A DNA stretch of 64,000 nucleotides, from positions 1 through 64,000 of IMG/VR virus record IMGVR_UViG_3300033149_002985. One strand, given 5' to 3'. The position numbers and the translations under genes were made by a program. Below the pieces are notes generated by a model. It made no database searches. It had not been told where the DNA came from and saw only the letters and a list, made by a program, of their open reading frames with translations. This DNA is from a virus. The stretch's first letter is position 1; each line of letters begins with the position of its first letter. Below, one piece after another: positions 2,036 through 16,166 of this stretch.

Positions 2036-2773
2036 ATGGAAAGAAGAATTGTGAAATTAATTTTAGGTGATTGTTTAGAAAAAATGAAAGATATACCTGA
2101 TGGTTCCGTTGATATGATTTTAACTGATCCTCCTTATGGTAAAACTGCTTGTAAATGGGATTCTATTATTCCTTTAGAACCTATGTGGGAACAATTAAAT
2201 CGAATCATCAAATCTAATGGGGCGATTGTGTTAACTTCAAGACAACCTTTTACATCCAAGTTGATAATATCAAATTTGAAAATGTTCAGACAAACTTGGG
2301 TATGGGACAAAATAATTGCAACTAATTTTATGAATGCAAAGAAAATGCATACTCAAGGTTTTGAGGATATTTGTATATTTTATAAAAAATTACCAACATA
2401 TAATCCGCAAATGGAAAAAGGTAAACCGTTTAAAGATAATAGAAAGACGAACTATAGGACAAATACAGAGGCTTTGGGGAGCAGGGTCAAGTATAATAAA
2501 CAAAATAATAATGGTGAAAGATATCCTAGAGGATTATTAAAAATAAGCGGAAGAAATAACAAACCTATTCACCCAACTCAAAAACCGGTAGCTTTAATGG
2601 AATACTTAATCAAAACTTATACTAATGAAAATGAAACTGTTTTAGACTTTACTATGGGTAGCGGCACTACTGGCGTTGCTTGTAAAAATTTGAATAGAAA
2701 AATTATTGGAATAGAATTAGATGAAAATTATTTTAATATTGCCAAAGAAAGAATAGAAAACTTTAACCCTTGA
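2036..2773 (+). CDS. DNA N6-adenine/N4-cytosine methyltransferase (beta class)
   Basis: GDCLE, DPPY, HPTQKP, VLDFTMGSGTT motifs. Confidence 0.92.
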   Translation: MERRIVKLILGDCLEKMKDIPDGSVDMILTDPPYGKTACKWDSIIPLEPMWEQLNRIIKSNGAIVLTSRQPFTSKLIISNLKMFRQTWVWDKIIATNFMNAKKMHTQGFEDICIFYKKLPTYNPQMEKGKPFKDNRKTNYRTNTEALGSRVKYNKQNNNGERYPRGLLKISGRNNKPIHPTQKPVALMEYLIKTYTNENETVLDFTMGSGTTGVACKNLNRKIIGIELDENYFNIAKERIENFNP

Positions 2774-2799
2774 CACCAAGGGGTGTAATATGGTATACT
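2770..2799 (+). promoter_or_regulatory. sigma70 promoter TTGACA-N18-TATACT
   Basis: TTGACA 2770-2775, TG-G-TATACT 2794-2799. Confidence 0.85.
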
Positions 2800-2805
2800 T
2801 GTAAT

Positions 2806-3070
2806 AGATAAAAGATACCTTCTGATCGAAATGTGGAGAATGTTATTCTTCTGGTGCTGTTATATCCATACAAAGGATATAAGAAGTTGGGAGGGTTTGG
2901 CTACCAAAAACATTCTAACACCAGCACAAAATAGATCTAAATTTGCTCCTCATTTGATTCCTATCATGATAGGTTTGAATGAGGTTATATGTGCTACGCC
3001 AGTAGCCTGGCATAAGAGAGGTGGTGGCAAGATTCGCAAAGCGTTTCCCGAAATCACCCCTCAATCTATA
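2806..3070 (+). ncRNA. candidate structured ncRNA / long 5' leader
   Basis: Directly after a promoter, GC-richer than its flanks, at least six complementary stems plus a possible pseudoknot. Confidence 0.45.
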
Positions 3071-3080
3071 AGGAATTTTT

Positions 3081-3260
3081 ATGATTAAATTTTTAAGATA
3101 TTTATGTTTTATTTTTCATCTACCATTTTTAATTACAATTACTTATGAATTAGGAATGGAACCAATAGAAGGAACATTAAGAGTTTTTAGAAATAGAAAA
3201 GAATTAAAATTAGAGAAAGATTATATTTTATCTAACAATAAGGAAATACAATTACTGTGA
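3081..3260 (+). CDS. small hypothetical protein (59 aa)
   Basis: AAGGA RBS; stop overlaps the GTG of the next ORF. Confidence 0.5.
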   Translation: MIKFLRYLCFIFHLPFLITITYELGMEPIEGTLRVFRNRKELKLEKDYILSNNKEIQLL

Positions 3261-3499
3261 AAAATAAACGAGGTCGCAAAAAAGGAACTAAAAATATATC
3301 TTTAGGTGAACCTCATAATTTAAGCTTCTGGAAAATAACTTTAAAAAGACCAGAAGAAGTTCATGATTTTTTAACCAGAGGAGATTCAAGACAAAAAGAA
3401 GAGATCAAAAACATTTTATTATATTTAAAGAGAGCAGAAATAGATTTTTTTGATGATGTTAATGGCGAAGAAATATTAAGGAAATTAAATGAAAGATAA
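3257..3499 (+). CDS. hypothetical protein with basic N-terminus (KRGRKKG)
   Basis: ORF in a translationally coupled run. Confidence 0.55.
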   Translation: MKNKRGRKKGTKNISLGEPHNLSFWKITLKRPEEVHDFLTRGDSRQKEEIKNILLYLKRAEIDFFDDVNGEEILRKLNER

Positions 3500-3683
3500 T
3501 TATTCTTTAAAATGTCAAATTAAAAAAGGTTGGATGAATGCAGGTAAAGAAGGCCAATATTTTGGTGAATTTAAAATTAAAGGAAGAATTTGGGCGATTG
3601 TTTTATGGAATAACTCGGACGAACCAGATTTATATAAAATCGAATCTTTGGAGATAGAAAATGAAATCAGAACTACAAAATAA
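3489..3683 (+). CDS. hypothetical protein
   Basis: ORF overlapping both neighbours, AAGGA upstream. Confidence 0.6.
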   Translation: MKDNYSLKCQIKKGWMNAGKEGQYFGEFKIKGRIWAIVLWNNSDEPDLYKIESLEIENEIRTTK

Positions 3684-4099: not shown

Positions 4100-4828
4100 A
4101 TGAAAACGTTTGTAATTGGCGATATACATGGAGCATATAAAGCATTGATACAATGTCTTAAACGATCTAAATTTGATTATGACAGAGATAGATTAATTTG
4201 TCTCGGAGATGTAGTAGACGGTTATCCAGAAACAAAAGAATGTATTAATGAACTCCTGAAAATTAAAAATCTTATCTATGTAATCGGAAATCATGATATG
4301 TGGGCATTAGACTGGATGGCTTCTGGTTATATTGATGCTCCTAATATTTGGGTTGGTCAAGGTGGAAGAGCAACAATGGATTCATACAGAACTAAGTGGG
4401 CTCATTTAGACGGTGTTGATGAATATTTTGTTCCAGAAGAACATATAAAACTTTTAAGAGATTCTTATGCTTATTACAAAGAGGATAATAATATTTTCGT
4501 CCATGGTGGATTTAATCCTGCAAAGCCAATAGAAAAACAAGATGTAAACGATTTAGTTTGGGATAGGGATTTATTTAAAAGTGCTCATGATAAACATTAT
4601 GGCGGAAGAAAAAATTTAAAATTTGGAAAGTATGATAATATTTTTATAGGACACACAACTACTGAAACTTATAATTCACTTGAACCTCTTCATTATTGTA
4701 ATGTTTATAATCTGGATACGGGAGCAGGATGGTCAGGAAAATTAACAATTATGAATGTCGATACGAAGCAATATTTTCAATCAGATCTCACCCCAAGTCT
4801 TTACCCCAAAATTCAGGGTAGAACTTAA
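4100..4828 (+). CDS. calcineurin-like metallophosphoesterase (lambda NinI/PrpA-type Ser/Thr phosphatase family)
   Basis: GDIHG, GDVVD, GNHD, HGG, GHT, LDTG. Confidence 0.9.
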   Translation: MKTFVIGDIHGAYKALIQCLKRSKFDYDRDRLICLGDVVDGYPETKECINELLKIKNLIYVIGNHDMWALDWMASGYIDAPNIWVGQGGRATMDSYRTKWAHLDGVDEYFVPEEHIKLLRDSYAYYKEDNNIFVHGGFNPAKPIEKQDVNDLVWDRDLFKSAHDKHYGGRKNLKFGKYDNIFIGHTTTETYNSLEPLHYCNVYNLDTGAGWSGKLTIMNVDTKQYFQSDLTPSLYPKIQGRT

Positions 4829-4858: not shown

Positions 4859-4933
4859 GAGGGAATAAGTTAACTGGCAAACTCGCTGTCTCCAAAACAG
4901 TAAATCTTAGTTCGAATCTAGGTTCCCTCGCCA
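4859..4933 (+). tRNA. trnW: tRNA-Trp(CCA)
   Basis: GAGGGAA/TTCCCTC acceptor, loop CTCCAAA, TTCGAAT T-loop, encoded CCA. Confidence 0.92.
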
Positions 4934-5009
4934 GGGTGGTTAGTTCTAATTGGTAAAACGCACGGCTGTAGACCGTCAGTTCTCTGTTCGAATCAGAGCC
5001 CACCCACCA
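4934..5009 (+). tRNA. trnY: tRNA-Tyr(GTA), short variable loop
   Basis: Loop CTGTAGA, CTCTG/CAGAG T-stem, ACCA end; mismatches at 7:66 and 27:43. Confidence 0.85.
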
Positions 5010-5084
5010 GGTGATTATAGTTTAACGGTAGAATATCTGATTGTGACTCAGATGGTTTCGGTTCAACTCCGAATAATCACACCA
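5010..5084 (+). tRNA. trnH: tRNA-His(GTG) with encoded G-1
   Basis: G + GTGATTA/TAATCAC acceptor, loop TTGTGAC, ACCA end. Confidence 0.9.
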
Positions 5085-5159
5085 CTCTCTATGGTGTAAT
5101 GAATAGCATATGAAGCTACGAACTTCATGGTAAAGGTTTGAATCCTTTTAGAGAGTCCA
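5085..5159 (+). tRNA. trnR: tRNA-Arg(ACG)
   Basis: CTCTCTA/TAGAGAG acceptor, loop CTACGAA, CCA end. Confidence 0.88.
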
Positions 5160-5235
5160 GGCGGATTAGCCCAACGGCAGAGGCAATAGTTTTAGAAACT
5201 ATTCAGTAAGTGTTCGAATCACTTATCCGCTACCA
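5160..5235 (+). tRNA. trnL: tRNA-Leu(TAG), short variable loop
   Basis: GGCGGAT/ATCCGCT acceptor, loop TTTAGAA, ACCA end. Confidence 0.88.
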
Positions 5236-5310
5236 GCTAGGATAACTCAGATGTAGAGTGCCTGTCTGAAGAACAGGAAGCCAGAGACTCAAACCCTCTT
5301 CCTAGCACCA
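5236..5310 (+). tRNA. trnF: tRNA-Phe(GAA), atypical T-loop
   Basis: GCTAGGA/TCCTAGC acceptor, loop CTGAAGA, T-loop CTCAAAC, ACCA end. Confidence 0.8.
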
Positions 5311-5388
5311 CAGAGCGTAGGCTAGTCTGGTCAAGTCACTCGGTTTGGAACCGAGAATTCGTTGGTTCGAATCCAACCGCTCTGACCA
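5311..5388 (+). tRNA. trnP: tRNA-Pro(TGG)
   Basis: CAGAGCG/CGCTCTG acceptor, loop TTTGGAA, ACCA end. Confidence 0.93.
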
Positions 5389-5463
5389 TGTTCGTTAGCT
5401 CAACGGCTAGAGCCCCGAACTGATAATTCGGTGATGATAGTTCGATTCTCGGTATCCCTACCA
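5389..5463 (+). pseudogene. chimeric tRNA-Ile(GAT) pseudogene
   Basis: D and anticodon arms intact (CCGAA-CTGATAA-TTCGG), but acceptor (TGTTCGT vs TATCCCT) and T-stem (GATAG vs CTCGG) do not pair. Confidence 0.8.
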
Positions 5464-5538
5464 AGTAGAGTAGTGTTAGCGGTAGCACGTCTGACTGTTA
5501 ATCAGAAAGGAATGGTTCGAATCCATTTTCTACTGCCA
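5464..5538 (+). tRNA. trnN: tRNA-Asn(GTT)
   Basis: AGTAGAG/TTCTACT acceptor, loop CTGTTAA, GCCA end. Confidence 0.92.
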
Positions 5539-5613
5539 AGAGGATTGGTGTAATCGATAGCACAACAGGCTTTGAACCTGTAGGTTTTGGTTTGACTCCA
5601 GAATCCTCTGCCA
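5539..5613 (+). tRNA. trnQ: tRNA-Gln(TTG)
   Basis: AGAGGAT/ATCCTCT acceptor, loop CTTTGAA, GCCA end. Confidence 0.9.
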
Positions 5614-5617
5614 GACC

Positions 5618-5647
5618 TTGACACCCCCAGGGGTGATGTGTTATACT
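5618..5647 (+). promoter_or_regulatory. sigma70 promoter TTGACA-N18-TATACT
   Basis: TTGACA 5618-5623, TATACT 5642-5647, starting 5 bp after the last tRNA. Confidence 0.85.
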
Positions 5648-5737
5648 TATAGTATAATGGTTAATTGAAAATAGTTTTTATTTTGTATTGGGAGGAGGGA
5701 TAAATAAATATCTTTCCTCCCTAAAATATTAATAATT

Positions 5738-6086: not shown

Positions 6087-6116
6087 TTGACACGCCCCCC
6101 TTTTATATGTTATACT
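6087..6116 (+). promoter_or_regulatory. sigma70 promoter TTGACA-N18-TATACT upstream of the morphogenesis operon
   Basis: TTGACA 6087-6092, TATACT 6111-6116; flanked by IHF-like sites at 6041-6065 and 6189-6213. Confidence 0.85.
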
Positions 6117-9947: not shown

Positions 9948-11741
9948 ATGGTAAATAACGATACTCAATTTTTAATAAATAATTTAATGCATTTAATGAT
10001 GCAAAAGATTTATGTACCCTCAGATTTTCATGGTAGGGTACAAGCTGTTAAAGAAATGCAAGATAATGATGTATCTGGCTTAGTAGACTCTTTAACTGAT
10101 TTTCAAGTTCAATCTGCTTCTGTAGATTTTAATATTGAAACTAGTAATGATGAGCTTACTGCCATTTATAAAAATTGGTCGGATAATATTAATCGAGACT
10201 ATGATGGAAAAATTCCTACTGGAATTAAACCATTAGCTGAAGAATATTTCAAAGAGAGATGGAAATACTCTTCTTTTCCTATATTAAATATTGCAAAATG
10301 GGAAGCAGACCCTAAAAGTAAACTTATATTACCTTCAAAAATGTTCTTTTTCGATGGCGAAAGTGTTTATGCTAAAGATAAAAACCCAGATAGTCAAGCA
10401 CTAGGAATAGACCAATACAATTATTATATTGGCCAGGAAATGAAATCTCAACATCTTTTAAAGAGCAATGTTATTTTTAGTAGAGCTAATGGTAAATGGA
10501 GCGACAAATATCCTAATCCTGTATTAATTAAAAGGGGAATATATTATAATTGGAGAATTATCGAGGCATTAAAACGAAACGAAATTGATGTGTTAGACCA
10601 AGTAATACCTTATTTATTTGTTATTAAAAAGAATACTGAACGATTAATGATTGATAAAAATCGCAAGTATTCAGATGAAAAATTACAAGAAATAATTACT
10701 AAATTTGAAGAATTGATTAATAAAAGCCAAGATGCTAAAACATCTCTTGCTGGTAAATCAACACCTATTAGGGCAACTCAAATTGACGAAGAAATTCAAC
10801 ATTTAATTCCAGATTTAGAAGCTTTATTTAAACTGGAATTATTTGCGTCTGCTGAAAAAAATATTTTATCAGGATTAGGATTTATTGATGTTATAGATTC
10901 CGCAACTTCGACAAGAAGAGAATCAATTTTAAATCCAAAACCGTTTATTCAAGAAGTTACGTCAGGAGTAGAAGGATTTAAACAAGTTATGAAAGACCTT
11001 GTTATTAAAATTAAACAAAAAAACGAGGAACATTCTAAATATATGAATGCGTCTTATGAAATTACCTCTACACCGATTAAAGGTTTTATGACTGATAAAT
11101 TTAAAGAAAGAATTCGCCAGTTATGGGATAGGGGTGTTATTTCTTCTCAAACAGCAGTTGAGATTATTGGAGAAAATATTAATCCTAAAGTTGAAATTCA
11201 AAGACGTGAAAATGAGGCAAAAACTGGTATTGACCTTGTTTTATATCCTCATTTAACAGATAATACAGAAGATAAAGGAATTGATATTGCAGGGCAACCA
11301 GAAGAAGATGATACCGATATTCCAGATGATAAAAAAGACAAAGTTGAAAAGCAAAATTTTGATAAAGCATCTTTAAATAATCCTTTAGAAGAAGAAATGG
11401 AATTAATTGGTTCTCCTTATGCTTCTATAAAAGATTTGCCAAAAAGTATTTCTGAACGAATTAGAGGTATTGACAAAAGACGAGCTTGGTTAAGAATTTT
11501 TAATAGTGCTTATAATTATTATCTAGGAAAATTTGGAAGTGCCCAAAGAGCTGAATCTTTAGCTTTTGCTACTGCAAATTCAAAAATTAAAACTGTTAAT
11601 TTGAAAGTTAAGAAGAAAAAAATAATCAAACAAAAAACTCCAGATAAAGCACAATTAGAAAAGGAAACGGTAGACAAGGAAATAAAAAACAAACAAAATT
11701 CATTATTGGACAAATTACTTGGGCGACAAAATAAGGAATAG
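9948..11741 (+). CDS. portal protein with C-terminal ChaB-like domain
   Basis: Follows TerL, 597 aa; PYASIKDLP...IFNSAY...AFATA resembles ChaB. Confidence 0.7.
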   Translation: MVNNDTQFLINNLMHLMMQKIYVPSDFHGRVQAVKEMQDNDVSGLVDSLTDFQVQSASVDFNIETSNDELTAIYKNWSDNINRDYDGKIPTGIKPLAEEYFKERWKYSSFPILNIAKWEADPKSKLILPSKMFFFDGESVYAKDKNPDSQALGIDQYNYYIGQEMKSQHLLKSNVIFSRANGKWSDKYPNPVLIKRGIYYNWRIIEALKRNEIDVLDQVIPYLFVIKKNTERLMIDKNRKYSDEKLQEIITKFEELINKSQDAKTSLAGKSTPIRATQIDEEIQHLIPDLEALFKLELFASAEKNILSGLGFIDVIDSATSTRRESILNPKPFIQEVTSGVEGFKQVMKDLVIKIKQKNEEHSKYMNASYEITSTPIKGFMTDKFKERIRQLWDRGVISSQTAVEIIGENINPKVEIQRRENEAKTGIDLVLYPHLTDNTEDKGIDIAGQPEEDDTDIPDDKKDKVEKQNFDKASLNNPLEEEMELIGSPYASIKDLPKSISERIRGIDKRRAWLRIFNSAYNYYLGKFGSAQRAESLAFATANSKIKTVNLKVKKKKIIKQKTPDKAQLEKETVDKEIKNKQNSLLDKLLGRQNKE

Positions 11742-12702: not shown

Positions 12703-14631
12703 ATGGCTCAACGATTAACGAACACAGGAATTCAAAGTTTTTTACAAGATTTTAAAGAGAATTCTCGTACACAAATTTATGAAAGTGGAAAACAGAAAGA
12801 CGAAATTATAGCTATTGCTAAAGCTAAAATGGGAATAGATTTAAAAAACAATAGCGATCTTGCAGGATTCAAAACAATTTATACCTTTGCTGATAAGTTT
12901 AATGGGAATGGATCTCGTTTACCAAAGCAATTATTATTAAAAGCCCTCCCTACTTTGATTGGAAAACCTGTTAATATTAACCACGTTCGGAACTACGTAG
13001 TTGGTTATTATATTGATTATTGTTATGTTGAAGCTAAAGACCAAGTGGTTGCTTATGGTCTATTTTTCAAGAGTAATTTTGGAGAAGAGTGGGCGGAAGC
13101 CAAAAATCTTTTAAAATCCAATCAATTAGGCACAAGTCATGAAGTGTGGAGTCCAGAAAAAACTAGAAAGTATTTTGCAGATGGTACATATGAATCTACT
13201 GTAATTGAATTCGCAGGTGGCGCATTAATTTATCGAGGACAGCCAGATCCTTTAATGCCTGGAAGAAAAATGCATACTGCTCATCGAGGTTGCGACGTTT
13301 TAGAATTGGCAATGCAACATATGGACAAAAAACCTGGTGATATGCTTTTCGCTTCTTTAGAAGACTCTAAGAAAATTTATAATAAAGAAGATTTAATTGT
13401 TGCTTCAGAAGCCGAAGAATTTGTGGAAAGAATTAAAGAAGATATTCAGCAACGAGTTGATTCTGGTTCTTATAAGGAAAATAATTCACCTCAACAAGTT
13501 CCTAAAGTTATTTGTGAGCATTGTAAATATGAATTTGAAACTTTAGAAGTAGGAGAAATAACTTGTCAAGAATGCAAATCTATTATTGATAGAACAGGTA
13601 AGGTTTTATTCCCTCCTCAAGTTATAGATTTTAATTTTAATGATCCCGATGACGGTTATGCAAATTGGCGTTTAATTGAAAATAGTAACGAATCTGCTAT
13701 TATTAAAAATACTGATACTGGAAAAATTTATGAATTGAATTTTAAGATGTCAGATTCTAATGATGAAATTTTAAATAAAATAAGTTTTGTTTATATTGGA
13801 AGTGCTTCTTGTCCTCAATGCGGATATACCCAATCAATTTCAACAAGTTCTAAAGATGAAAATTTTGAATTAAATTGTCCTCGTTGTGAATTAAGATTTC
13901 ATAAAAATATAAAACGAGATGGTTTAAGGAAACAAATTACGAATTACATAGATATCACAGAAGATTTTAAAAATAGAACTACAAAGAAGGTGGTTAAAGA
14001 ACAAATGACCGATCAAATAACAGAACTAGATGTGGCAAGTTTGCCAACGGAAAATAAAATGGAATTAGAAGTTGCAAGTTTAATTAAGAAGGAAGAGGTT
14101 ATTTGTAATTTAGAAGTAGCCAACCTTCAAGAAACTGAGGTTTCTCTTGACCTTGAAATAGCAAATCAAGTTTCCACAGTTGTATTAGAAACAGCCTCTT
14201 TAAATAATGTAGAGGTAACAAATGTTAATCAAATTGAAAGGTATAAATCTTTCATTAAAAAGATTGTAAACAAGGTTCGTAAATTAAGGAAAGAAGCGAA
14301 TCTTGATACTGCAAGTTTAAAGTCTGCAAATACGCTAGAAATAGCAAAGATACAAGAGAAAGCAGATACAAAGATAGAGTTTTATAAAACCAATGCTGTT
14401 GAATTAGTTAAGCGTAGAGATGTGCTTGGTGAATTCGGAAGCGAATTATCCAATGAAAAGATAATGGATGATAATGCTTATGCATTGGCAAAGTCTGAAA
14501 AAGACAATGCCCTTCTTAAAGCAAGTTTGAACAGTGGAATCGAAGTTATTGGAGATAAACCTTCAATACACGGAGACAATTCTGAGCTAAAACGCTTGAG
14601 TGATGAGATAACTAAGAAGGCATTTAAATAA
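12703..14631 (+). CDS. prohead protease/scaffold fusion with zinc ribbons
   Basis: GKPVNINH and GTSHE putative catalytic motifs, four CxxC, coiled-coil C-terminus, directly before the capsid gene; GGAGG RBS. Confidence 0.7.
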   Translation: MAQRLTNTGIQSFLQDFKENSRTQIYESGKQKDEIIAIAKAKMGIDLKNNSDLAGFKTIYTFADKFNGNGSRLPKQLLLKALPTLIGKPVNINHVRNYVVGYYIDYCYVEAKDQVVAYGLFFKSNFGEEWAEAKNLLKSNQLGTSHEVWSPEKTRKYFADGTYESTVIEFAGGALIYRGQPDPLMPGRKMHTAHRGCDVLELAMQHMDKKPGDMLFASLEDSKKIYNKEDLIVASEAEEFVERIKEDIQQRVDSGSYKENNSPQQVPKVICEHCKYEFETLEVGEITCQECKSIIDRTGKVLFPPQVIDFNFNDPDDGYANWRLIENSNESAIIKNTDTGKIYELNFKMSDSNDEILNKISFVYIGSASCPQCGYTQSISTSSKDENFELNCPRCELRFHKNIKRDGLRKQITNYIDITEDFKNRTTKKVVKEQMTDQITELDVASLPTENKMELEVASLIKKEEVICNLEVANLQETEVSLDLEIANQVSTVVLETASLNNVEVTNVNQIERYKSFIKKIVNKVRKLRKEANLDTASLKSANTLEIAKIQEKADTKIEFYKTNAVELVKRRDVLGEFGSELSNEKIMDDNAYALAKSEKDNALLKASLNSGIEVIGDKPSIHGDNSELKRLSDEITKKAFK

Positions 14632-14655: not shown

Positions 14656-15648
14656 ATGTTAAATGAATTTGACCCAAACAGACGTTATGATTTGGAAATC
14701 GCTAAACTTATTAACGAGCCAATCAATACGCAACTTCCTTGTGCCGTCGCAATTACTGAAATTGCTGACGTGTATACTGCGGAGCCTGGCGAACACGTTT
14801 GGAGAATTAAAAATCTAGATAATACGGCTGATATTGTGTTATCCGTAGATGCTAATGGGATTCTTACCCCTGTGAAACGAACACCTTTACAGGATGTAGA
14901 ATTAGCCTTTAGTGGTTTTAACTCCAAATTAGAGTATGTTTTGCTTGAAGATGTTTTAAATAAAGTAGATACTGATGCTTTATCTCGAAGGAAAGAATCT
15001 ATTACTAGAGGAATGGATAAGAAAGAAGTTAAATTAATTCTGGATGCTATCTTGACACCTACTAATGCGGTATTTCCTCACAATAAAGTTGGAGGTTATA
15101 CGGTTTCTATTGAGTCTGGAGATGACATTTATGATGTTTATTTCAAGGCAAAACACGGCGTTGAAGATTACGGTGACAATTATAGTTCTTTAGTCGGTTC
15201 TACTGTTAAAGAAAAAATTGACACTTATGATAAGGATAATGTAACGACTTTCAATTACAACATTGTTTTAACTGATCGTCTTGCAAAAATCGGAGTTTCT
15301 GTTCGAAAGGTTTTCGGTAAAGTTTCTGTGGCATCTAACGAAGCAGAAGTAGATCTTTTGGATAAGAAAACGATGATTTTAGTTGCGAAGGATTCAACTA
15401 TTACTGACGGAAAGCCAATTCAGTTTGTGCGTCGCAAAATTAGTCCTGCGATTGCTAAATGGATGGGTGTTAATCCTGATAGTGCTCAACGAGCAATTAT
15501 AGTTGGTAATACGCCTGTTGTTATTAATACGGCCGGTGTTACTGACCAGGTACTTGGATTTAGCGTAGTTGGTTATGAGAGTTTTGTAATGTGTATTAAG
15601 AACCCTTATGCCATTGCAACGGCAGATCTTACTTCGATCCTTTCGTAA
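14656..15648 (+). CDS. major capsid protein
   Basis: 330 aa, position after protease/scaffold, strong AAGGAG RBS, downstream hairpin. Confidence 0.75.
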   Translation: MLNEFDPNRRYDLEIAKLINEPINTQLPCAVAITEIADVYTAEPGEHVWRIKNLDNTADIVLSVDANGILTPVKRTPLQDVELAFSGFNSKLEYVLLEDVLNKVDTDALSRRKESITRGMDKKEVKLILDAILTPTNAVFPHNKVGGYTVSIESGDDIYDVYFKAKHGVEDYGDNYSSLVGSTVKEKIDTYDKDNVTTFNYNIVLTDRLAKIGVSVRKVFGKVSVASNEAEVDLLDKKTMILVAKDSTITDGKPIQFVRRKISPAIAKWMGVNPDSAQRAIIVGNTPVVINTAGVTDQVLGFSVVGYESFVMCIKNPYAIATADLTSILS

Positions 15649-15667
15649 GTAATTTTTGATAGATGTA

Positions 15668-15705
15668 AAGGAGATGGGGAGTCGCCAAGCGTCTTCCCTC
15701 TCCTT
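15668..15705 (+). terminator. stem-loop after the capsid gene
   Basis: AAGGAGATGGGGA / TTCCCTCTCCTT inverted repeat. Confidence 0.55.
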
Positions 15706-15734
15706 AGTTTGATATAAATGAAGAAAGGAATCAT

Positions 15735-16166
15735 ATGATAGTTTTTAAAACTGGTGTATCCAACAAAGAAAAGAAAGAGATTATATCTATACTCGCAGAA
15801 AATGTCGATTTATTTTCAGATTTTTATATCACAAAAAATAATCTAAGATTATCTATTAAAGAAAATCTTCCTGTTTTGTTTGATTGTTTAAAAAAAGGTG
15901 ATAAAATAGCTTTTGATGAAAATGGAGTGGGTATAATTGTCGGTTATTCTGATAATGCACCAAGAAAATATTTAAAAATATTAGCTAAAAAGGATAAAGA
16001 TGTCGAAGCCTTGGTTAAGATTATTTCTTGGAATATAAAAGAAGATCTTTGGGTTAAGATTAAAAAAAATAATCCAATGAGAAAGATATTAGAAAAAAAT
16101 AATTTTAGATTTAAAGCAGGAAGAGGAGCTGAAGTGCTTTTAATTAAAAGGAAATCCAACCAATGA
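15735..16166 (+). CDS. hypothetical protein, GNAT-like C-terminal motif
   Basis: KNNPMRKILEKNNF resembles GNAT motif B. Confidence 0.4.
   Translation: MIVFKTGVSNKEKKEIISILAENVDLFSDFYITKNNLRLSIKENLPVLFDCLKKGDKIAFDENGVGIIVGYSDNAPRKYLKILAKKDKDVEALVKIISWNIKEDLWVKIKKNNPMRKILEKNNFRFKAGRGAEVLLIKRKSNQ

Follow-up and report, generated by a model that had tools for sequence, protein, structure and literature searches.

The window analysed here is the first 64 kb (64,000 nt) of a 92,965-bp IMG/VR virus record that is rated 99% complete, and its base composition is AT-rich (~30% G+C). It raises the question of what the 275 nt between positions 2806 and 3080 on the + strand are for. This stretch has a DNA methylase gene on its 5' side (2036-2773, +; Pfam N6_N4_Mtase, E 8e-35). 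On its other side follows a run of small same-strand genes, which includes a metallophosphatase gene (4100-4828, +) and leads to a tRNA array (4859-5613, +; detected by ARAGORN and Rfam). The distance from the element to the array is 1.8 kb, with six genes in between. The stretch could act as RNA, as a gene for a small protein or as DNA. The explanation we put first, and hold tentatively, is that 2806-3080 is a cis-acting, structured and non-coding 5' leader, belonging to the operon in which the tRNA array comes last. In the array itself, the Rfam tRNA model finds two additional tRNA-like units that ARAGORN does not report, 5236-5307 (57.3 bits) and 5396-5450 (29.4 bits, a truncated match), and the array holds ten units when both are counted.

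A sequence-only reading of the window had placed a strong promoter at 2770-2799 (+). This promoter is genuine and is shared across the phage family. It has the form TTGACA-18-TATACT, with the -35 element at 2770-75, the -10 element at 2794-99 and an upstream TG at 2791-92, and reaches 11 of 12 consensus matches in a consensus scan. It is one of seven near-identical promoters in the 93-kb genome, which follow the pattern cccTTGACAC-N13-TATG(G/T)TATACT and continue into TATAAT/TATAGT-like bases. The others lie at 1589-1618, 5618-5647 and 6087-6116 on the + strand and at 46628-46599 on the - strand, and beyond the window at genome positions 86237-86208 and 85423-85394 (-). The same motif is found in many related phage loci from metagenomes (L082-L148). 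From the conserved promoter spacing, transcription is predicted to start at A2806, after a conserved 6-nt discriminator. For the promoter at 1589, the start predicted from the same spacing coincides with the first base of the ATG at 1625 (1613-1627), so that the mRNA of the first rightward gene would be leaderless.

The first clearly translatable gene downstream of A2806 encodes 59 aa and is preceded by the Shine-Dalgarno sequence AAGGA at 3070-74, with its ATG at 3081 (3070-3083, +). The element occupies the space between the predicted start and this first Shine-Dalgarno sequence of the unit, which is the position of an operon leader. Between 2800 and the array we detect nothing that resembles a terminator, and this argues for the head of a long transcript and against a terminated small RNA. 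We propose that a second rightward transcription unit would start near A2806 behind the promoter at 2770, run through six small genes including the metallophosphatase and reach the tRNA array at 4859-5613, and that the ribosome would meet its first binding site only at 3070.

The candidate structured leader RNA begins at the predicted start and stops just short of the ATG of the next gene (2806-3080, +, 275 nt). It folds with a minimum free energy (MFE) of -79.7 kcal/mol, compared to -61.7 +/- 4.6 kcal/mol for 200 dinucleotide shuffles (z -3.88). None of the 200 shuffles folded as well, and the proposal that this stretch is unusually structured withstood the comparison with shuffled controls. 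Flanking coding stretches of 275 nt give z values of 0.0 and -0.9, and for a GC-rich island at 880-1110, taken as a non-coding control, z is -1.2. Three sub-domains fold beyond their shuffles independently, with z -4.14 for 2835-2930, -3.20 for 2944-2990 and -3.07 for 2990-3066, and their MFE structures represent 32-58% of the respective ensembles. Among 146 sliding windows of 275 nt in the first 36 kb, the window of the element ranks 5th, within the top 3%, and is not unique. The four better-ranked windows are the tRNA array, one that overlaps the end of ORF 14656-15648 and two coding windows, and the lower scores of the latter two count against a leader. A z of about -3.9 is attained by only ~2% of coding windows, which in turn speaks against a purely coding stretch. 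Lower z values are seen for the windows 15501-15775, 14001-14275 and 10001-10275 (about -6.4, -5.4 and -5.1, with 15 shuffles each). The first of these overlaps the end of ORF 14656-15648 and may contain a stabilising or terminating hairpin.

The opposite strand of the element also folds better than its shuffles (z -3.46), as is expected of DNA palindromes. Over 2806-3080 the + strand is favoured by 6.6 kcal/mol. The preference is clear in domain A, with -30.5 kcal/mol on the + strand vs -21.0 kcal/mol on the - strand, and in domain B, with -15.1 vs -11.7 kcal/mol; in both domains G-U pairs lengthen the helices on the + strand. Domain C has the better fold on the - strand, a point against a leader and in favour of an element that acts as DNA. 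On the transcribed strand, the whole stretch and all three domains fold beyond their base composition; this strand is the better one overall and in domains A and B, and not in C. The first 29 nt of the RNA are predicted to be largely unpaired. The loops are not of the GNRA or UNCG types that are common in stable RNAs, which again weighs against a leader.

All stems that had been listed from the sequence alone are present at their stated coordinates, both on reading the sequence and as inverted repeats I1, I2, I4, I7 and I8, including a stem GAGG(T)GGTG / CACCCCTC on the + strand. Domain A (2835-2930, +) contains the stems AGAATGTT (2837-44) / AACATTCT (2909-16), an 8-bp helix, TTATATCC (2860-67) / GGATATAA (2875-82) and TTTGG (2896-2900) / CCAAA (2904-08). 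The segment TGGTG (2852-56) is complementary to CACCA (2919-23) and had been proposed to form a pseudoknot. The MFE structure, which makes up 32% of the ensemble of this domain, is a different one. It begins with a local hairpin at 2835-51, followed by a three-way junction that is closed by GUGCUG (2854-59) and CAGCAC (2922-27) and that contains a hairpin at 2860-82 and an arm at 2886-2919. The nested closing helix and the local hairpin together replace the 8-bp helix. When the 8-bp helix is forced, the cost is only 2.3 kcal/mol, and the alternative conformation then combines 2837-44/2909-16 with the pseudoknot pairing 2852-56/2919-23. The geometry of the pseudoknot is thus possible on paper, while the MFE structure uses the nested alternative 2.3 kcal/mol away. 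In these predictions the pseudoknot and the nested topology of domain A compete, and neither is established.

Domain B is a hairpin at 2948-2984 (+) with 10 + 5 bp, an internal loop and two G-U pairs, in which CCTCATT (2948-54) and AATGAGG (2978-84) enclose CCTATC/GATAGG. It corresponds to inverted repeats I7 and I8, and its MFE structure represents 58% of the ensemble. On the - strand only 7 + 5 bp can form. The core of domain B is a perfect 14-bp DNA palindrome (2960-2973, CCTATCATGATAGG) at the centre of an imperfect palindrome of 37 bp. Besides forming an RNA hairpin, this palindrome might be bound by a protein. Domain C consists of two parts. C1 (2988-3014, +) can form two overlapping and mutually exclusive hairpins, either GCUAC/GUAGC or GCCAG/CUGGC. 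C2 (3016-3062, +) is a G-rich hairpin, GAGAGGUGGUG ... CACCCCUC, with a Shine-Dalgarno-like 5' arm, and 8 nt separate its end from the real Shine-Dalgarno sequence.

Leaders of ~85-230 nt before the first ribosome-binding site are found behind four of the seven conserved promoters, with the present one not counted. The leader behind the promoter at 5618 (5654-5737, 84 nt) has a z of -3.8. The leader behind the - strand promoter at 86237 (225 nt, genome about 86202-85978, -) has a z of -3.9 and contains repeated ATTCACTAC-type hairpins. In all three structured leaders, including 2806-3080, the last element is a G-rich hairpin a short distance ahead of the unit's first gene, and in two of them, 2806-3080 and the leader at 86237, this hairpin stands just before a canonical Shine-Dalgarno sequence. 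Long leaders are habitual in this phage, two of the others are as structured as the element, and this tipped the balance towards interpreting 2806-3080 as a leader.

A relative with 48% terminase identity (L084) shows a comparable arrangement at 2080-3620. An ORF-free divergent region of 1.5 kb is followed by a promoter, a leader of ~210 nt and an array of seven tRNAs, which places the array directly behind an early promoter. The analogous leader before this array is unstructured (z +0.6) and unrelated to the element, and as such it is an argument against a structured leader.

The main alternative is a protein-coding one. An ORF of 85 aa (2831-3088, +; TAA stop at 3086-88) overlaps the element, and the sequence-only reading had set it aside because it lacks a ribosome-binding site. 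The observation itself is correct. No AGGA, GGAG or GAGG is found 5-15 nt before any of the in-frame ATG codons at 2831, 2840 and 2966, in a phage in which 58 of 88 large ORFs carry an AGGAG-type site. What had been overlooked is that the frame is open far beyond chance. It is stop-free over 99 codons (2789-3085) and spans the whole gap, while the other two frames contain 8 and 5 stops. In 5000 dinucleotide shuffles, a frame as open as this occurs with P = 0.0012 on the + strand and P = 0.008 on either strand. In addition, the stop codon of the ORF overlaps the ATG of the next gene at 3081 by 8 nt, as is seen for coupled phage genes, and the ATG at 2831 is mostly unpaired, with a predicted unpaired probability of 0.7-0.9. 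All three features count against a non-coding leader.

Two trivial origins of the open frame were considered and rejected. The frame is the same as that of the methylase, but read-through is blocked by the stops TGA 2771 and TAA 2786, the promoter lies in between, and a phmmer search finds no methylase relative with a matching C-terminal extension. An antisense shadow does not apply, as the opposite strand is free of genes here. Such shadow frames of at least 80 codons (up to 162) are found opposite real genes about 40 times in the 93 kb, so that the length of an ORF alone is a poor criterion for a gene in this phage.

The codon usage of the ORF points away from a gene. Its codon score, the mean codon log-probability under the usage of the phage itself, is -5.91, close to random stop-free sequence of equal composition (-6.07 +/- 0.17) and indistinguishable from it. 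Real genes score -5.26 +/- 0.20, which leaves the ORF 3.3 sd below them, and no real chunk of 85 codons scores so low. The GC content at codon positions 1/2/3 is flat (.36/.44/.36) compared to.42/.31/.17 in genes, and the third-position AT bias of the phage is missing. The ORF has the third lowest codon score of the 42 open frames with 80-130 codons that are unshadowed, and the two frames below it look spurious. In the predicted peptide W, C, H, P and R are frequent, and D and E are scarce. On the other side of the balance, the codon log-ratio is positive in the frame of the ORF only (+0.18 vs -0.16 and -0.20), and a few other small ORFs of the phage have atypical codon usage as well.

No relatives of the ORF protein are detected in a word-indexed search of 5.8 billion clusters or with phmmer run in full against 1.84 billion representatives. 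These searches return only the protein itself, which three contigs (the longest of 94,653 bp) carry in identical form, and a tandem-repeat artefact; this other match was rejected as a spurious tandem-repeat translation. A Pfam search with the 85-aa ORF gives no match, and the ESM Atlas model of the protein is of low confidence (pLDDT 0.43, pTM 0.23). The missing homologues are weak evidence against a gene, since a neighbouring real-looking gene of 80 aa is also without relatives in IMG/VR. Taken by codon usage, ribosome-binding site, homology and predicted fold, ORF 2831-3088 does not look like the genes of this phage.

A serious rival, somewhat less probable than the leader, is that the ORF is a real orphan gene for a basic protein of 85 aa that is translationally coupled to the next gene. 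Such a gene might have been acquired recently from a GC-richer source and would be translated from a 25-nt leader independently of a Shine-Dalgarno sequence; the RNA structure would then be incidental or a feature of the mRNA. As a rough estimate, the stop-free frame favours a gene by about one to two orders of magnitude. By an equally rough estimate, codon usage, missing ribosome-binding site and fold, taken together, weigh about as heavily or somewhat more heavily towards a non-coding RNA. With the genuine family-wide promoter and the other long leaders added, a non-coding 5' leader is the reading that we tentatively favour.

If the stretch is non-coding, it could still be a free-standing RNA of a new class that is excised from the head of the tRNA-array transcript. 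Such an RNA might act in trans on host or tRNA-related factors, cleave itself as a ribozyme, or work as a switch that senses a ligand or a tRNA. The sequence-only reading had gone in this direction and suggested an undescribed phage non-coding RNA, ribozyme or riboswitch-like leader. Its statement that signatures of tmRNA, RNase P, SRP and hammerhead are missing is borne out. The Infernal search that it had proposed was carried out over the whole window with the 4227 models of Rfam 15 at gathering thresholds, among them RNase P, tmRNA, SRP, 6S, T-box, riboswitches, self-cleaving ribozymes and ROOL/GOLLD/HEARO, and only tRNAs reach the threshold. The element thus matches no described RNA family. 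With permissive filters (E up to 10), the sole match in 2700-3200 is rli43 with 9.6 bits and E = 9, on the opposite strand. ARAGORN detects no tRNA or tmRNA in the element and places such genes only at 4859-5613. A segment GGUGGUGG resembles a T-box motif, and we rejected this assignment as the Rfam search gives no T-box match.

The more specific part of that proposal does not hold. An expression platform as required for a riboswitch is not found, as 2800-3100 contains no terminator-like site and the Shine-Dalgarno sequence is not robustly sequestered. Only if the RNA is cut at 3080 is this sequence (3070-74) predicted to pair with the 5' end of the RNA. With 40 nt of additional downstream sequence, it pairs downstream instead. 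This dependence of sequestration on how much downstream sequence is included also takes away from a regulatory role of the leader. Rfam detects no ribozyme core in the element. What stands is an unusually structured stretch behind a genuine promoter that belongs to no described family, and a ribozyme or riboswitch is unsupported. To name the element a novel non-coding RNA with a pseudoknot, a ribozyme or a riboswitch exceeds the evidence.

Homologues of the element were searched in ~155 related or neighbouring loci with nhmmer --max and with two single-sequence covariance models, R1 for domain A and R2 for domains B and C. The loci comprise 80 beside methylase relatives, 4 + 49 + 2 around terminase relatives (from IMG/VR, metagenomes and genomes), 19 around relatives of a 134-aa protein and one around a relative of a 125-aa protein. 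No homologue is found in these loci; the best values are E 0.69 and 1.8, and both matches lie inside unrelated genes. Three exact scans of IMG/VR with 18-20-mers likewise give no homologue. Their one k-mer match is a chance match, inside a gene of a GC-rich phage and with flanks that show no similarity. The genome of the phage itself contains no paralogue. Synteny of the early region upstream is lost even in the closest relatives, with 69% terminase identity. With no homologue in the data searched, there is no covariation support for the fold.

These results bear directly on a free-standing RNA, which we regard as unlikely. Its multi-domain architecture with well-defined sub-folds, the competing pairings in domain A (with the possible pseudoknot) and in C1, and the failure to match any known family would suit a new class of RNA, and the stable RNAs of phage T4 would offer a precedent by analogy. 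Against it are the missing 3' terminator, the distance of six genes from the tRNA array, the missing expression platform and ribozyme core, and the lack of a paralogue in the genome and of a homologue even in relatives with a terminase that is 69% identical.

Slightly less probable still, and improbable overall, is that the stretch has no function or acts as DNA, with its inverted repeats as operator or replication protein-binding sites: the loopless palindrome is typical of sites for dimeric DNA-binding proteins and fits with the folding of the - strand, but the pairings over 58-62 nt and the G-U-dependent helices favour + strand RNA for domains A and B, direct repeats or iterons are not found, and the AT-rich divergent region at 430-1590 is the likelier control or origin region. 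This divergent region itself has no match in Rfam, shows no family similarity and has a fold z of -1.2.

Under the favoured explanation of a cis-acting 5' leader, the RNA would fold co-transcriptionally into three independent domains, and the ORF that spans it would remain untranslated. The leader might influence, in cis, how the tRNA-array unit is stabilised, processed or translated. Its stable 5' domains and long hairpins could protect the transcript or be processed, similar to 5' stabilisers and RNase III sites, respectively, and a change between the competing pairings of domains A and C1 could adjust the expression of downstream genes.

Several known systems can be compared to such a leader. 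In phage T7, a long untranslated and hairpin-rich stretch with the RNase III site R0.3 leads from the strong early promoters to the first gene. Similar to T7, the element would be a long untranslated stretch at the head of a polycistronic transcript, and it contains long irregular hairpins of the RNase III type. The two share no sequence similarity, and cleavage by RNase III is known for T7, whereas the element is described from its sequence. Stem-loops that act as 5' stabilisers are found in Gram-positive and phage mRNAs, as in the ermC, aprE and SP82 leaders. Like these, the element would place stable structure near the 5' end of a transcript, and the TRTG -16 motif of the promoter together with the AGGAG sites is in line with a Gram-positive-like host. 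In contrast to the element with its three domains and 275 nt, the ermC, aprE and SP82 stabilisers measure tens of nt and consist of one hairpin or of a ribosome-binding decoy, and the largely unpaired first 29 nt of the element are a further difference.

The put RNAs of phage HK022 are cis-acting antitermination RNAs of ~70 nt with two stem-loops behind early promoters. They resemble the element in that structured RNA follows immediately on an early promoter and forms part of a long transcript. They differ from it in size, with two stem-loops in ~70 nt as opposed to 275 nt, and no terminators that would need read-through were found in the unit of the element. Phage T4 produces two stable RNAs of unknown function, C and D, from its tRNA gene cluster. 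The likeness is that of a phage-encoded structured RNA on the transcript of a tRNA array. RNAs C and D are encoded within the tRNA cluster itself and are set free when the tRNAs are processed, while the element is located 1.8 kb upstream of the array.

The phage that carries the element is without a relative among 50,697 deposited phage records, in which neither the element nor the terminase is matched. Relatives of its terminase are up to 55% identical in IMG/VR; in metagenomes and in MAG contigs that are probably mis-binned the figure is 69%. Two contigs with such relatives, L156 and L157, are binned in MAGs labelled Planctomycetales and Woesearchaeota; these labels probably reflect mis-binning and are no evidence of the host. 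A Gram-positive-like host is suggested by the TRTG -16 element of the promoters and by the strong AGGAG sites. The lineage is deep-branching and uncultured; its other members come from metagenome contigs, of which one is from marine sediment.

If real, the element would add an orphan structured leader of 275 nt to this deep-branching uncultured phage lineage. Being known from a single sequence, it is a candidate to revisit as related genomes appear. The strongly folded leaders behind several copies of one promoter hint at control on the RNA level, which would involve the early genes of the phage and its supply of tRNAs.
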